Both the position numbers and the translations under genes were made by a program. The notes under the pieces are model-generated. The model saw nothing but the letters and a program-made list of their open reading frames with translations, was not told where the DNA came from and made no database searches. Below, piece by piece: positions 5,953 to 31,169 of a DNA stretch of 64,000 nt (within the stretch, counting starts at the first letter, position 1; each line of letters begins with the position of its first letter). Where the stretch lies: IMG/VR virus record IMGVR_UViG_3300044712_000123. One strand, 5' to 3'. Origin of the DNA: a virus (taxonomy: Duplodnaviria; Heunggongvirae; Uroviricota; Caudoviricetes).

Positions 5953-6506
5953 GTCAATCCTATAATCATGTATCTGTCGTAACCCCAGTCACCGTACTGT
6001 ATTCGCTTAGTTCCACTGAATAATGTATGCGTTACTGGATATAGTTTCACGAAGCTATCAAAGTCAGGTGTGGGTTGAGTTATGAACCATGGACTATCAG
6101 GATCAGTTACATTAGTAGATTGAATACAAACTAGTGTATTTTTTGGTAGTTTAGTGAGCCAATCATTGGAGGTAAAGTGTTCTGAGCTACAATTGACGAT
6201 CACGGTGTGCTCATTAGTGTCACATTTGTATGTGTTTGCGTCCTCACAAAGGTTCTTAATTCCTCGCTCACTCCATAACCAACTGTTGGTAAACTTATCT
6301 GCTATCTGTATTGCATCATTGTCTAAGTCTACCCCGGTGATAGAATTGATAGATGAACGATCCCTGACCATCAGCATAAAACCCAACACATTGTACCAGC
6401 ATCCTAGGATGTGTATATCAGCATTCGGTGGCAAGTGCTTTTCAAGCTCCTCGCACAGCCAAATCTTACTGTGTATCTGTCCATGGCTCAGGCTGTCATA
6501 GTTCAT
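5949..6506 (-). CDS. Class I SAM-dependent methyltransferase-like protein
   Basis: IHILGCWYNVLG..ITGVDLD..CEDAN..IVNCSSEH Rossmann pattern. Confidence 0.7.
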   Translation of the reverse strand: MNYDSLSHGQIHSKIWLCEELEKHLPPNADIHILGCWYNVLGFMLMVRDRSSINSITGVDLDNDAIQIADKFTNSWLWSERGIKNLCEDANTYKCDTNEHTVIVNCSSEHFTSNDWLTKLPKNTLVCIQSTNVTDPDSPWFITQPTPDFDSFVKLYPVTHTLFSGTKRIQYGDWGYDRYMIIGLT

Positions 6507-6571
6507 ATCAACGATATTTATCAAATATTTTTTTACAAAAGATAAATAAAGTATCAATTGGAGAATTTTAA

Positions 6572-8659: not shown

Positions 8660-8724
8660 AGGATAGTAACAGCAACATTTATACTCTGAACTTTTAATTC
8701 AACCAGTAAAAATTCTATCCTGTT
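8660..8724 (+). ncRNA. CAGCAA-module RNA carrying a Lys(TTT) anticodon stem-loop
   Basis: AGGATAG-TAACAGCAA ... TGAA ctTTTaa TTCA ... CTATCCT-GTT. Confidence 0.7.
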
Positions 8725-10159: not shown

Positions 10160-10282
10160 AGGATACATTCAGCAACTAATACTTACGTCAACTAGCGTGT
10201 TGAGAGTTCGAACCTCTCCTTCGTTCTTATGGACGATGTAGCTCAATTGGTAGAGCAGCCAGCAAGTAAAAAGTATCCTGTC
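10160..10282 (+). ncRNA. CAGCAA-module RNA carrying a circularly permuted tRNA (T-arm, looped acceptor, D-arm)
   Basis: AGGATAC..GAGAG ttcgaac CTCTC-CTTCGTT/GACGATG-TAGCTC aattggta GAGC..GTATCCT. Confidence 0.75.
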
Positions 10283-20098: not shown

Positions 20099-20963
20099 GG
20101 GGGCTTAGCCTCATTAGAATAAGCATAGTGATATGCCCAAAGCGGTCGTCTCCTACAGACCCGCGCTAGAAATAGTTCATCTAAGCAAGCCTGCTTACAC
20201 CCGTGAGGGTGCGATCACTGATAAGACCGGTGGTTGTAACTGTAAAGCAAGTGTGTTGGAAAGAATGTCTGTTTATGTTCCCGTGAGGGTAAGACAGGCG
20301 GACAGAGAGTAACAGGTGGTGCTGACCTCAACACAAAACCAACTTGTCAACAGGTATAAGAAAAGGTAGTGTATTGATTCGAGGGGTTGCACCCAAGAGT
20401 TCGTATGCAGTTTGAGTGGTTAGTGGATATGTATGGTAACAGGCATATACACCGATCGTGAAAGACGACTGAGTAGTTCGCAAGACAAAAGGTACGTGGC
20501 GTGTTGTATTTTGTAGTCCAAAAGATTATGAAGCAACTGAGACAGCACATCACAGTAGGTTGTTATAGATCATTGGTAGATCAATTCTCTGTTAAAGAAT
20601 AGGCAGCAGGTTCAATTCCCGCTAACAAATAAAAAAGCAAAGTCTGTCTCGGTTGTATGTGAAAAGCATCTAATACTGGAGCCGCAAGGTAATTCAGTCA
20701 GACGTAACTCGCAAGGTGAAATCTGTTTATGCAGGAAGTTTCGTAAGTTGTTAGCGCAACTGAATGGCTCGCAAGGTCAGCGGAGTAGAAAGCGTAGAAT
20801 AGCATACAATGTCAAGTCTAATGCCTGACTTAAAACGGCGATGTTGGTAACAGACTAGGATACTCAGCAATGAGGCTTAGTGGAAATCAGAAGAAAGCAG
20901 TCTCGCAAGGATTGTAATAATGTCTGAGGTGTTACTCGGTAAGGATGTATTCTCAGTCCTCCA
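20099..20963 (+). ncRNA. GOLLD-like giant structured RNA (about 865 nt)
   Basis: ORF-free; many GNRA hairpins; GGGGGCT/AGTCCTCC end pairing; ACTGAGACAG/CTGTCTCGGT long-range pairing; located in a tRNA cluster and carrying an internal tRNA. Confidence 0.65.
20559..20629 (+). tRNA. tRNA-Asn(GTT)-like domain embedded in the giant RNA; no CCA
   Basis: GATC attggta GATC; ATTCT ctGTTaa AGAAT; GCAGG ttcaatt CCCGC; TTGTTA/TAACAA. Confidence 0.7.
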
Positions 20964-22060: not shown

Positions 22061-22179
22061 AGGTTCATTTCAGCAATCAAAATAATCTTTCTGTAAAAAA
22101 GAGGGACTGGGTTCGAATCCCAGCAGTGAGTTGGTCTTCACTGTGGTGTAATGGTAGCACGAAAAAAGTTGAACCTGTT
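22061..22179 (+). ncRNA. CAGCAA-module RNA carrying a complete circularly permuted tRNA-Tyr(GTA)
   Basis: AGGTTCA-TTTCAGCAA..TCTTT ctGTAaa AAAGA..CTGGG ttcgaat CCCAG-CAGTGAG/TTCACTG-TG-GTGT aatggt AGCAC..TGAACCT-GTT. Confidence 0.8.
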
Positions 22180-22197
22180 AACGCAAATAAATACAGC

Positions 22198-22839
22198 ATG
22201 AAGAAATCGGCTGATGATATTTTATTTGCAAGTGTAAATCTTCCAATCTTAGACAAAAAACTAGCCGCTAAAGAAATTTTAGCACTAGGTGATGAAGTGT
22301 CTTATTGGAATGATTATCGATACACAAAGATGATTCCATTAATGACAAAAGGTGGCGCCGGTCAACGAATTGGCGCTGACAATAGTAGACCTGGAGATTT
22401 TGATTGGACATCTTATGCTCCTAATGTCATTGTCGATTGGTTCGAAGAACATGTTTTTCCCTGGCTAGGTGGACGTTATCGTGTTATGGCATTGATAACA
22501 CAGCCCGGAGTAGCAAATCATGAACACATCGATTGTAACCCTGACGAACTAAATACACTTCAACATAAGTTTAGAATTGTATTACAGGGTAAGACAAGTA
22601 CATTGTATTGGTTAACGGACAACGGCAACGTTTATGTACCTGATACAGAGAAAGCATTTATCATGGATGGCGGTTGGCCTCATGGTATGACAAATACAAC
22701 TGACGAGATTAAAGTAACATTGGCATTGGGTGCCCCCTGGGTAGGCAATGAAAGTTACGGTGATGATATCACTATCTTGCAGAGAAGACAAGATTATAGA
22801 ATGCCAGAGAAGATAGATCATCTTTGGCAAAAGAGTTAA
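22198..22839 (+). CDS. Aspartyl/asparaginyl beta-hydroxylase-like 2OG-Fe(II) oxygenase
   Basis: NHEHID..HKFRIVL..MDGGWPHGMTN. Confidence 0.75.
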   Translation: MKKSADDILFASVNLPILDKKLAAKEILALGDEVSYWNDYRYTKMIPLMTKGGAGQRIGADNSRPGDFDWTSYAPNVIVDWFEEHVFPWLGGRYRVMALITQPGVANHEHIDCNPDELNTLQHKFRIVLQGKTSTLYWLTDNGNVYVPDTEKAFIMDGGWPHGMTNTTDEIKVTLALGAPWVGNESYGDDITILQRRQDYRMPEKIDHLWQKS

Positions 22840-28406: not shown

Positions 28407-29138
28407 ATGGATGATACGAAAATTTTCTGGCGCAGACATGAGCTACCTGTTGCAGAGTACTTAATGTCACATCAAGCTGGGTTGCGTGATGATTTCATGA
28501 GAGGTTTTGCAACCTTAGAGGAAGCAGCAAAAGCCCAAACTGAGGGTATTATGGCTAAAGAATGGCGCTTAAAGGATCGTATTAGACGCGGATTCTCAAA
28601 GGAAGATACAGAAAATTGTGTCACCACCGGTGATTCTGCAAATCTTGAGGGATGGAGAGCTATGCCCCTTCGTTACGAAAGACATGACGACATTAATATT
28701 AGTTATACAGCACCTGAGTCCTTTAAGGAAAGGTATCCAACTGCATATAAACTAATAACAGAATACGGGGATGACTGCCCAATCTCAAATTATACAGTTC
28801 TCGCTCCCAACACTGTATTGCATAGACATACTGGTGTTGAAAATCGCACAGGTGAATACATCCGTATCCACATCCCATTGATAATCCCTGAGGGTGATGT
28901 ATTCTTTGAAGCGAACAACGAAGAAATAGATTGGTCTGACATTTGGGGATTTCATAATCAGTTTGCACACTCTGCACACAACTATACAAACGAATGGCGT
29001 TTAGTATACCTAATAGACCTTCGCAGAACTTCTATCGGTCTGCCACCAGGAATGCCATATGATCCAAAATATGAATCAACAAACATGGCTCCGTTCGTAA
29101 GAAAAAATAAACCAAATCAGTTACCCAAAACTGTTTGA
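28407..29138 (+). CDS. Aspartyl/asparaginyl beta-hydroxylase-like oxygenase
   Basis: LHRHTG..RIHIPLIIP..FHNQFAHSAHN..RLVYLID. Confidence 0.85.
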   Translation: MDDTKIFWRRHELPVAEYLMSHQAGLRDDFMRGFATLEEAAKAQTEGIMAKEWRLKDRIRRGFSKEDTENCVTTGDSANLEGWRAMPLRYERHDDINISYTAPESFKERYPTAYKLITEYGDDCPISNYTVLAPNTVLHRHTGVENRTGEYIRIHIPLIIPEGDVFFEANNEEIDWSDIWGFHNQFAHSAHNYTNEWRLVYLIDLRRTSIGLPPGMPYDPKYESTNMAPFVRKNKPNQLPKTV

Positions 29139-29163
29139 CAACAACACTAAATTGTTATACAAT
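29135..29163 (+). promoter_or_regulatory. sigma70 promoter of ncRNA cluster
   Basis: TTGACA-17-TACAAT. Confidence 0.7.
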
Positions 29164-29184
29164 ACTTGTATTGAATGATTCAAA

Positions 29185-29440
29185 GGGATGATTTCAGAAT
29201 TTAAAAACATACTTAACTAATTACCATAGAAGGTGGTCGTAGGACACAGTAGCAATACTGTTCTAGGAAACTAGACTCGAAGGAATGGATGACAGAATGG
29301 AAAGACATTCTATGATGTTTGTACAGACACAATACAAACTAGTCAACATGAATTGTTGATATGGTTGAGGAACGTAAGTCCTTTATAGGTGAGTTAGACT
29401 CAACCAGACAATAAAATAAACTACGTTCAGACATCCCGTT
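29185..29440 (+). ncRNA. Long variant CAGCAA-module RNA with multi-hairpin cargo
   Basis: GGGATG-ATTTCAGAA..CATCCC-GTT; hairpins ACAGTA gcaa TACTGT, CTAG gaaa CTAG, GTTTGTA/TACAAAC, TCAACA/TGTTGA, TGGTTGAG/CTCAACCA. Confidence 0.6.
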
Positions 29441-29449
29441 TAATTTTTT

Positions 29450-29600
29450 AGGATCGGTACAGCAATAATTTACTTTATTGGAACTGATGGATCGCATGGT
29501 AGCTATTGGAGTCTACGGACGTTGAAGGTAGTTATTGAAATGCATCTATCGCAATAGGAGTGATGGCCCTATTCAAAAAGCAGTCAACAACGATCCTGTT
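29450..29600 (+). ncRNA. CAGCAA-module RNA with about 115-nt cargo
   Basis: AGGATCG-GTACAGCAA ... CGATCCT-GTT; inner ACTG/CAGT, GATGGAT/ATCTATC, AATAGG/CCTATT. Confidence 0.7.
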
Positions 29601-29626
29601 ATTTTTCGTATCATTGCAAAAAAGTG

Positions 29627-29655
29627 TTGACAAATAACACAAACAATGATACAAT
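29627..29655 (+). promoter_or_regulatory. sigma70 promoter; predicted start at the module RNA 29663
   Basis: TTGACA-17-TACAAT. Confidence 0.7.
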
Positions 29656-29662
29656 ACATTTT

Positions 29663-29719
29663 AGGATGCATTCAGCAACTTTAATCTTTTTCATAATAAG
29701 AGCAAAAGCGCATCCTGTT
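29663..29719 (+). ncRNA. CAGCAA-module RNA carrying a Met(CAT) anticodon stem-loop
   Basis: AGGATGC-ATTCAGCAA..TCTT-t ttCATaa t-AAGA..GCATCCT-GTT. Confidence 0.72.
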
Positions 29720-29744
29720 GCAAAATTCATAGAAAGGAACTATA

Positions 29745-31169
29745 ATGCAATTCGCAGAAGCAATCAAAAACCAAGAAGTTCGTACTACTAATGGTATGAA
29801 GGCACGTAAGTCAAGCGCAAACGCTTGTGTAGACTTGTTCTACAACCTAGGTGCAAGCCGAGGTAAAAACGTTATCCCAGCATTCACTGCGGCTTATGTC
29901 GAGAACAGTGATCTGGCACTGCGTATTGCACAGTGGGCACGTGATGCCCGCGGTGGTTCCGGTGAACGCCAAGTGTTCCGAGATATTCTTGTTCACTTGG
30001 AAAAGACTAACCCAGAAGACGCTATGCGTTTGATGGCGAAGATCCCAGAAATCGGTCGTTATGACGACTTGCTAGTGTTTAAGACTCAGCCTGTGAAGGC
30101 TAAGGCATACACTATGCTTGGCGATGCACTTCGTGCCCGTAACGGTCTCGCGGCTAAGTGGACTCCTCGTAAGGGTGAAGTCGCACGTGAAATCCGCGAA
30201 TTCTTCGGAATGACTCCTAAGCAATACCGTAAGAGCCTTGTTGCACTTACTAACGTTGTGGAAACACAAATGTGTGCTAAGGATTGGGATAACATCAACT
30301 TCTCGCATGTTCCTTCAGTGGCACATGCACGTTACAAGAAGGCGTTTGGCCGTAATGGCACAACTTACGCTGAATACGTAACTAAGTTGGTTAAGGGCGA
30401 AGCAGGTGTCAAAATCAACGCTGGTGCAGTTTTCCCTTACGATGTGTTGAAGGGTGCTATCAACCGATACAGCCGTTCAGCTATGTCTAAGACTGAGTTG
30501 GATGCATTGCAAGCCCAATGGGACGCATTGCCTAACTACGTCGGTGACGCTAACGTGTTGCCTATGGTTGACTCGTCAGGTTCGATGACTTGCGCGGCAG
30601 GTGGTTACAACTCTAAGTCAGGCTTGTCTTGCTTGGATGTTGCACTGTCTTTGGGCTTGTACTTCGCTGACAAGAACAAGGGTAAGTTCAAGGATACGTT
30701 CTTGACTTTCTCTAACACACCAAAGTTGGTTAACTTGAAGGGTAACATCAATCAAAAGATTGACCAAATGAACACAGGCGAAGTTGCTAACACCAACTTG
30801 AATGCGGCGTTCAACTTGATCCTCAAGACAGCGTTGGACAACAATGTTCCTCAAGCAGAAATGCCAGAAACATTGGTGATCTTCTCTGACATGCAGTTCG
30901 ACCAAGGCGTTAAGCACGATGACAGCGCAATCGAAATGATTGCACGTAAGTATGAAGCCGCAGGCTACGCGATCCCTAAGGTCGTGTTCTGGAACTTGAA
31001 TGCCGCTTATGGCAACACCCCTGTCAAGTTCGATAAGAGTGGTACCGCTCTTGTCTCTGGTTTCAGCCCAGCTGTTGCAACTTCTGTATTGTCAGGAGAC
31101 TTGGAAGACTTCACACCAGAAGCTATCATGTTGAAGACAGTTATGAAGGATCGTTACGACTTGTCGTAA
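29745..31169 (+). CDS. DUF2828-family TROVE-like/vWA protein (Ro60-like architecture)
   Basis: N-terminal TTNG..VDLF..RDARGGSGERQVF..GRYDDL..AKWTPR helical region; vWA MIDAS VDSSGSM..T..SDMQFD..VFWNL..VSGFS. Confidence 0.8.
   Translation: MQFAEAIKNQEVRTTNGMKARKSSANACVDLFYNLGASRGKNVIPAFTAAYVENSDLALRIAQWARDARGGSGERQVFRDILVHLEKTNPEDAMRLMAKIPEIGRYDDLLVFKTQPVKAKAYTMLGDALRARNGLAAKWTPRKGEVAREIREFFGMTPKQYRKSLVALTNVVETQMCAKDWDNINFSHVPSVAHARYKKAFGRNGTTYAEYVTKLVKGEAGVKINAGAVFPYDVLKGAINRYSRSAMSKTELDALQAQWDALPNYVGDANVLPMVDSSGSMTCAAGGYNSKSGLSCLDVALSLGLYFADKNKGKFKDTFLTFSNTPKLVNLKGNINQKIDQMNTGEVANTNLNAAFNLILKTALDNNVPQAEMPETLVIFSDMQFDQGVKHDDSAIEMIARKYEAAGYAIPKVVFWNLNAAYGNTPVKFDKSGTALVSGFSPAVATSVLSGDLEDFTPEAIMLKTVMKDRYDLS

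Follow-up and report, generated by a model that had tools for sequence, protein, structure and literature searches.

Ro60 particles are built from a ring protein and a small Y RNA that gates the ring or tethers a nuclease to it, and the cargo of the known bacterial Y RNAs is either a tRNA mimic or a simple hairpin. The question raised by the locus described here is what two long folded RNAs are doing beside a gene for a Ro60-like protein. The locus lies in a 64,000-nucleotide (nt) stretch (hereafter the window) of the IMG/VR record IMGVR_UViG_3300044712_000123 (Caudoviricetes), in which RNA A and RNA B, found where an original prediction from this DNA had placed them (29185-29437 and 29451-29596, coordinates verified), precede a gene encoding a DUF2828/DUF7788 protein. 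That A and B are genuine non-coding RNAs, both conserved and elaborately folded, we regard as almost certain. By analogy with Y RNAs, we lean towards the view that they are partners of the Ro60-like protein, such that a handle formed at their paired ends would bind the protein while the large enclosed cargo would serve as an adaptor or scaffold. What is new is the covariation-backed folds of two long-cargo RNAs and their linkage to the gene.

Folds of RNA A and RNA B

RNA A opens with GGGAUG and closes with CAUCCC followed by GUU, and these ends pair into a 6-bp closing stem, P1 (29185-29190 with 29432-29437). P1 leads into a 33-nt single-stranded linker that holds the motif UUCAGAA (29193-29199), after which come P2 (29224-29227 with 29285-29288), the three-way domain P3 (29232-29277, loops GCAA and GAAA), H7 (29294-29311, carrying an invariant GGAAAGAC), H8 (29317-29339, loop CAGACACAA), H9 (29343-29359) and H10 (29363-29405). 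The original prediction spoke of at least six hairpins in RNA A, several with GNRA loops; there are seven (P3a, P3b with the GCAA loop, P3c with the GAAA loop, H7, H8, H9 and H10, the first three enclosed by P2 and P3), of which only two have such loops, and both remain GNRA (GAAA, GCAA or GUAA) across relatives.

The rationale for this model is based on comparison among relatives. The fold was built by hand and then scored on a plain MAFFT alignment (A1) of 39 distinct RNA A homologues from viral contigs located via the protein (80 fetched of 297). Standard pairs fill 92.4% of the cells, as against 76.2% after shuffling and 30-45% with slid partners, and the covariation score is 0.428 versus 0.147 for shuffled alignments. 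Both sides change at 30 of the 44 pairs, the outermost pair of P1 covaries (GC, UA, AU), and in RNA A and RNA B alike the G-U pairs are consistent with the plus strand only. The folding z-score of RNA A is -4.06, with none of 200 shuffles as good, and a covariance model (R1) recovered 98 further copies at 108-251 bits. Two other pairings were rejected: a long-range helix of the minimum-free-energy fold (~29212-29219 with 29361-29368) clashes with the covarying H10 and the pseudoknot described below, and CCAUA at 29224, which could pair with UAUGG at 29361, covaries in relatives with AUGG at 29285 instead.

The original prediction missed one helix. Its 5' strand, GAACGUA (29370-29376), opens the loop of H10, its 3' strand, UACGUUC (29422-29428), lies in the 3' tail immediately ahead of P1, and a conserved A-rich stretch (29406-29421) connects the two. 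All 39 A1 sequences have standard pairs at the first four positions of this helix despite UA/GC/AU and AU/CG/GC exchanges. Moreover, a second, independent set of 77 distinct RNA A copies has 16 distinct H10-loop 6-mers, nearly all of which find a complement of at least 4 bases in their own tail, and the helix reaches at least 5 bp in 56% of these sequences versus 9.6% when tails are swapped. On this comparative evidence the loop-tail helix is an H-type pseudoknot.

RNA B is likewise closed by its ends, GGAUCG and CGAUCC (then UGUU), which form a 6-bp P1 (29451-29456 with 29591-29596) followed by the motif UACAGCAA (29458-29465). The nested stems that the original prediction saw in 29450-29600 correspond to H2 (29486-29497 with 29540-29550), which encloses H3 (29500-29505 with 29529-29534), which in turn encloses H4 (29511-29520, UACG loop). 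Together with the hairpins H1 (29463-29480) and H5 (29553-29573, loop AGUGAUGGC), this nesting produces a four-way junction with a long nested arm. The H5 loop, the two UUGAA strands (29522-29526 and 29535-29539) that lie opposite UGG, and the tail AAAAAGCAGUCAACAA (29575-29590), including AAGCAGUCAACA, are nearly invariant.

In an alignment (A2) of 26 distinct RNA B homologues, standard pairs amount to 95.4% versus 82.6% shuffled and 23-39% slid, and the covariation score is 0.407 versus 0.178 shuffled. The closing stem is GGAUCG/CGAUCC in some relatives and GGUUAG/CUAACC in others, with two of its pairs covarying, and MAFFT misaligns H1 and H4, at which every relative has hairpins of differing sequence. 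The minimum-free-energy fold equals the manual model (z = -2.74; 1 of 200 shuffles as good). A candidate pseudoknot between ACUG at 29483 and CAGU at 29581 was discarded since the pairing is lost in relatives. Likenesses to 5S rRNA loop E, the L11-binding region of 23S rRNA and double T-loops were considered, and as no model match supports them, none is claimed. The original prediction was to be given up if related phages lacked covariation; the helices of both RNAs covary strongly.

Do these RNAs encode anything, or belong to a family already described? ARAGORN finds no tRNA in RNA A or B, and no plus-strand open reading frame (ORF) of at least 40 amino acids lies inside either. To this extent the earlier statement that the region has neither ORF nor tRNA arms stands, and it is qualified by two minus-strand ORFs of 52 and 40 amino acids that overlap the region, the longer of which straddles the A-B junction, which is rearranged in relatives. 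Rfam returned no meaningful match for A or B at gathering thresholds or at E-values up to 10; the more permissive cut-off likewise gave no ribozyme or riboswitch family for either, and no match to the Y_RNA and YrlA models within 28900-29800. A scan of bacterial and archaeal genomes with the RNA A core gave 6 matches, where ~8 are estimated by chance, and R1 confirmed one of the six (L273:1611-1802), the other five agreeing with the chance expectation. The confirmed copy lies on a contig of 1.8 kb in the bin of an uncultured Polynucleobacter, and hints weakly at a freshwater betaproteobacterium as host.

The shared handle and the linked gene

A motif search of the window finds eight RNAs with one end architecture, five of them between tRNA genes (at 8661, 9619, 10161, 19739 and 22062) and three, namely A, B and a short RNA C, directly upstream of the protein gene. 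A logo of 338 distinct modules from related loci gives the handle as UUUUA-GGAUnn-nUW-CAGCAA, a variable interior, an A-rich stretch, nnAUCC and UGUU. In A and B a 6-bp end-to-end stem is followed by (U)WCAGMA; in the general form, (U)WCAGCA(A) stands single-stranded after the 5' strand of the stem and C(U/C)GUU follows its 3' strand. UWCAGCAA is exact in B. The original prediction had noticed a variant motif in A, and this is a single C-to-A change, the window reading CAGAA where all relatives read CAGCA; the copy at locus L001 is identical at 252 of 253 positions (99.6%) and differs solely at this base (window 29198, L001:2444). The CAGAA of the window could be either a sequencing error or a test of the motif provided by nature. 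Both RNAs have the covarying 6-bp end stem, the motif three bases after it and a DUF2828/DUF7788 gene nearby, and they are separate, independently folding members of this CAGCAA-handle family.

The sibling RNAs carry other cargo. The interior of modules 10161 and 22062 holds a T-arm, a sealed acceptor stem and a D-arm, arranged in permuted order, and the module at 10161-10281 is weakly YrlA-like (34 bits over 10178-10280, where the gathering score is 69). Directly after module 22062-22178 comes what may be a ninth handle RNA, in degenerate form (22184-22228, AAAUAAAUACAGCA...UAUUUUAUUUGC; R1 E = 0.14). RNA C reads GGAUGC-AUU-CAGCAA...GCAUCC, then UGUU, and in every locus 29-37 nt separate the end of its stem from the start codon. 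Among 32 distinct strong-promoter relatives, the distance from the end of the -10 box to the first G of handle C stays within 9-11 nt throughout and equals 10 nt in 27. Because this spacing is fixed, transcription is predicted to start at the UAGG that opens handle C, which bears out the earlier claim that the third copy begins at a predicted transcription start.

The gene product matches Pfam DUF2828 (E = 7e-25) and DUF7788 (E = 3e-42) without a TROVE match, and its PHROG group (850) is named 'RNA-binding protein'. It has a vWA domain with an intact DxSxS MIDAS, and D276, S278 and S280 are invariant among relatives. A sequence search of the PDB returned nothing, and ESM Atlas returned only the protein's own family. 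An AlphaFold2 model with 66 diverse relatives has a predicted local distance difference test score of 91.8, and the best 13 Foldseek matches of this model in the PDB are all Ro60/TROVE structures (from Thermus phage phiLo, Xenopus, Deinococcus and human), with E-values from 3e-8, TM-scores mostly 0.56-0.64 and 12-16% identity. As modelled, the DUF2828/DUF7788 protein has the Ro60 fold. At 50% identity the family falls into 5,977 clusters, and it occurs in 702 records of cultured phages, among which are Felix O1-type coliphages, mycobacteriophages in which it is annotated 'Ro-like', and phages of Listeria, Vibrio and Campylobacter. RNA ligase genes are found no more than a few kb from the DUF2828 gene in cultured phages of Erwinia and Aeromonas (L198:2257-3516, L199:9102-9389), as is a tRNA nucleotidyltransferase gene in the Erwinia phage; these neighbours fit a role in RNA repair.

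How tightly are the RNAs linked to this gene? IMG/VR was scanned with patterns of the RNA cores only, in order to avoid circularity. A same-strand DUF2828 gene was present in 109 of 115 loci found with the RNA A core, mostly 200-400 nt downstream of the core, and in 111 of 117 found with the RNA B core. The gene usually lies 200-600 nt from A or B, and most loci without it had flanking DNA too short to judge.

Several further observations concern the handle family beyond A and B. Many relatives have another cargo, of ~110-165 nt, where RNA B would lie (L013:2504-2613, L014:2498-2608, L020:2762-2876, L080:2798-2906). It contains a conserved loop GAUAACUUCAAG that resembles an anticodon loop (C-U-UCA-A-G), as well as the hairpin GUGAGUUUCGAU..CUCAC. 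Among cultured phages the closest is Synechococcus phage BUCT-ZZ01 (ON615601.1; 47.5% protein identity), whose DUF2828 gene is immediately preceded by three handle RNAs that lack annotation (176, 61 and 68 nt; L196:3643-3969), the long one with cargo unrelated to A or B; these RNAs are a possible experimental system. Escherichia phage SUSP2 (Ounavirinae) gives weak, handle-only R1 matches (L200:5876-5932, 6332-6402 and 6422-6543; E 0.003-0.35) among tRNA genes downstream of an annotated 'RNA-binding protein'. In the literature searched, neither a description of CAGCAA-handle RNAs beside DUF2828 genes nor a link of DUF2828 to RNAs was found.

Competing explanations for the two RNAs

If A and B are partners of the Ro60-like protein, how would they work? 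The handle is the putative binding site of the DUF2828 ring, much as Ro60 binds a Y RNA at its terminal stem, and that A and B engage the protein through it is well motivated and, in our judgement, reasonably probable. The promoter at 29135-29163 would transcribe both RNAs, and the A-B transcript would be cut in its AU-rich spacers. The cargo may then project from the ring and recruit a second factor, such as a nuclease (PNPase, for example), an RNA-repair enzyme or a substrate RNA; alternatively, it may gate access to the ring. Likely contact sites are the invariant loops and junctions GGAAAGAC, CAGACACAA and CCAGAAAAUAAA in A, and AGUGAUGGC, the two UUGAA strands and AAGCAGUCAACA in B. The leader copy, C, may let the protein bind its own mRNA and so regulate itself.

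Several results weigh against this partnership. The Ro60-binding motif GNCGAAN0-1G is absent from the 5' ends of A and B (GGGAUGAUUUCAGAA, GGAUCGGUACAGCAA), and the sole CGAA in A is an internal junction that is not conserved in relatives. The protein falls outside Pfam TROVE, and RNA A of the window has an A at the nearly invariant C of the handle motif. A and B had no blastn match in cultured phages, including carriers of the protein family; the whole region matched these phages only over short pieces of the protein gene at ~70% identity. Because of this lack of DNA matches in cultured phages with the protein family, the A/B cargo is lineage-specific and not essential to the protein. Lastly, a preprint reports that gp130 of phage Bas63, termed Ro60-like by structure, counters Ppl defence if it is expressed by itself, whether from a plasmid or from T7 (PMC11482910). 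Other Felix O1-type phages carry DUF2828 homologues, and if gp130 is a DUF2828 protein, such a protein has at least one activity that does not depend on phage RNA.

An alternative hypothesis is that the handle is a signal for processing or stability (tRNA-type end-processing, RNase E/III or RNA ligase) rather than a binding site for the ring, with A and B acting alone as decoys for host defence nucleases, sponges or ribozymes. The handle RNAs of the tRNA island lie within ~6-10 nt of tRNA ends, which are cutting sites of tRNA-processing enzymes; in its size, its pseudoknot and its invariant junctions, A has traits typical of a ribozyme or a ligand-binding RNA; and the independence of gp130 from phage RNAs (PMC11482910) points the same way. 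However, the very tight same-strand linkage to the gene in independent RNA-only scans, the copy of the handle at a fixed distance in the gene's own leader, and the lack of an Rfam ribozyme or riboswitch match at E-values up to 10 argue against a mere processing signal, which we consider unlikely but deserving of some weight.

It is also conceivable that A and B are cis-acting leaders of the Ro60-like gene, either riboswitch-like or autoregulatory. In the window they lie 150-560 nt upstream of the gene on its strand, the pseudoknot and conserved core of A resemble riboswitch aptamers, and U-rich tracts follow both RNAs. However, a cis-regulatory leader would hold a fixed position in the 5' untranslated region with no promoter in between, whereas a strong promoter separates B from the gene, and neither order nor distance is constant: many relatives have the order B-A-C-gene instead of A-B-C-gene, B is replaceable by other cargo of 110-195 nt, and in some loci RNA A lies 1.0-1.5 kb upstream of the gene or ~1.8 kb beyond the gene start. 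The same closing handle, moreover, is found on stand-alone RNAs between tRNAs, 7-21 kb away. We judge a leader function to be very improbable and, because of the order swaps among relatives, view A and B as self-contained cassettes. The remaining reading, that A and B are chance hairpins of AT-rich intergenic DNA (36-41% GC in this region), where short inverted repeats are common, or relics of mobile repeats without function, is effectively refuted by covariation, since more than 100 distinct homologues keep the helices via compensatory changes and shuffled or slid controls never approach the observed values.

Beyond a partnership between handle and ring, a bolder proposal is that the Ro60-like ring and the handle form a modular platform with swappable cargo (tRNA mimics, A, B and other lineage-specific folds), on which RNA A, given its pseudoknot, GNRA loops and invariant junctions, might itself be a machine rather than a passive tether, whether ribozyme, ligand sensor or specific docking site for a host RNA or enzyme. 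This we put forward as speculation to which only a little credence should be given.

Known RNA families and the genomic setting

The comparison with Y RNAs (Yrn1/YrlA, YrlB, Yrn2, RF02553, and Yrl1/Yrl2 of phiLo) reveals likeness in arrangement and difference in detail. Bacteria have two or more Y RNAs beside rsr, and the Ro60 of Thermus phage phiLo binds two Y-like RNAs (Yrl1/Yrl2) encoded upstream of its gene and assembles with host PNPase (PMC4201824; PMC12135203). As in those systems, a gene for a Ro60-fold protein is closely preceded, on its own strand, by at least two non-coding RNAs, their ends pair into a terminal stem beside a short conserved 5' single-stranded motif, a variable 'effector' domain is enclosed, and siblings that mimic tRNA occur in the same genome. 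In contrast, the motif of A and B is UWCAGCAA and not GNCGAAN0-1G (GGUCCGA in animals), their terminal stem is 6 bp only, and the protein is DUF2828/DUF7788 with 12-16% identity to solved Ro60 structures. Y RNAs measure 80-130 nt and consist of a long stem with a large internal loop or a tRNA-like domain, whereas A (253 nt) has a multi-helix cargo with a pseudoknot and B (146 nt) a four-way junction instead of a tRNA-like domain or long hairpin. A and B therefore fail the tests that define a canonical Y RNA: motif, size and Rfam match. The Y-RNA analogy drawn in the original prediction holds insofar as A and B share the handle of the tRNA-like modules and are linked to a Ro60-fold gene, and fails with respect to the motif, the size and the lack of a TROVE protein. 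The accompanying idea that a second, non-tRNA-like Y RNA tethers Ro to a nuclease is not supported: it is the tRNA-like Yrn1/YrlA that sits in the bacterial Rsr-PNPase complex, and the second bacterial Y RNAs (YrlB, Yrn2) have merely been suggested to widen the range of partners (PMC4201824).

The Class I RNAs of Dictyostelium (RF01414; PMC7919456) also resemble the handle strikingly in how their ends are built: AG precedes a stem of 6 bp whose sequence varies, (C)UUACAGCAA comes next, the 3' side is rich in A and the end is CUGU. These RNAs are 42-65 nt long, start with AAG, contain the 11-nt motif CCUUACAGCAA and end in CUGU (PMC7919456). The best Rfam match of RNA C is Dicty_Class_I_RNA, over the full model, at 26.6 bits in the window; 8 of 9 relatives of RNA C match it as well, and the scores, window included, range over 24-28 bits, all below the gathering score of 41.5. 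Class I RNAs differ in being eukaryotic, in having a DUSE promoter element and in binding the RRM protein Rnp1A, and A and B are three to five times longer and have no Rfam match. Since the orphan Class I RNAs of dictyostelids share the handle architecture, the speculative platform proposed above might, if real, extend to eukaryotes. GOLLD and ROOL are likewise large, structured, covarying non-coding RNAs of phages with tRNA islands; unlike A and B, which bear a handle, are smaller and are linked to a specific protein gene, they show no similarity to the present RNAs in sequence or model.

The window itself holds a phage-type tRNA island of 49 tRNA genes (7.9-32.6 kb, ARAGORN), and an Rfam search of the window finds a full-length GOLLD RNA at 20496-20959 (215.7 bits), inside which sits a tRNA-Asn gene (20558-20631). 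RNAs A and B occupy an ORF-free stretch of 600 nt between a hydroxylase-like gene (end 29138) and the 474-codon gene, and the features of this region are collected in Table 1. A perfect inverted repeat, CAATAC-TT-GTATTG, with AATGA after it (window 29156-29180), overlaps the -10 box of the first promoter. In 31 relatives the CAATAC..GTATTG block is conserved ahead of the cluster, no matter which RNA leads it. The repeat could be an operator or a 5' hairpin.

Table 1 Features of the RNA cluster and the adjoining gene, in window coordinates
Feature	Position	Strand	Basis
Sigma-70-like promoter, TTGACA-17-TACAAT, before RNA A	29135..29163	+	Consensus scan 11/12; upstream block kept in 31 related loci
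RNA A, 253 nt	29185..29437	+	Alignment A1, covariance model R1
RNA A pseudoknot	29370..29428	+	Covariation, tail-swap control
RNA B, 146 nt	29451..29596	+	Alignment A2, pair counts, minimum-free-energy fold
Second sigma-70-like promoter, TTGACA-17-TACAAT with upstream TG	29627..29655	+	Consensus scan; spacing in 32 relatives
Short handle RNA C, 52 nt, 5' leader of protein gene	29664..29715	+	Conserved in 58 loci
Ro60-like protein gene, 474 amino acids, DUF2828 + DUF7788	29745..31169	+	Pfam, AlphaFold2 + Foldseek

What do these RNAs mean for the biology of the phages that carry them? They constitute two new, well-supported classes of structured RNA with a built-in clue to their protein partner, and RNA A is large enough for cryo-electron microscopy. 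The ability of the Ro60-like protein of Bas63 to defeat Ppl defence offers a mechanism that can be tested. The locus would pair a very large, unstudied Ro60 relative with a 250-nt pseudoknotted or a 146-nt four-way-junction cargo, and the variety of cargo among related phages suggests that it is exchangeable.
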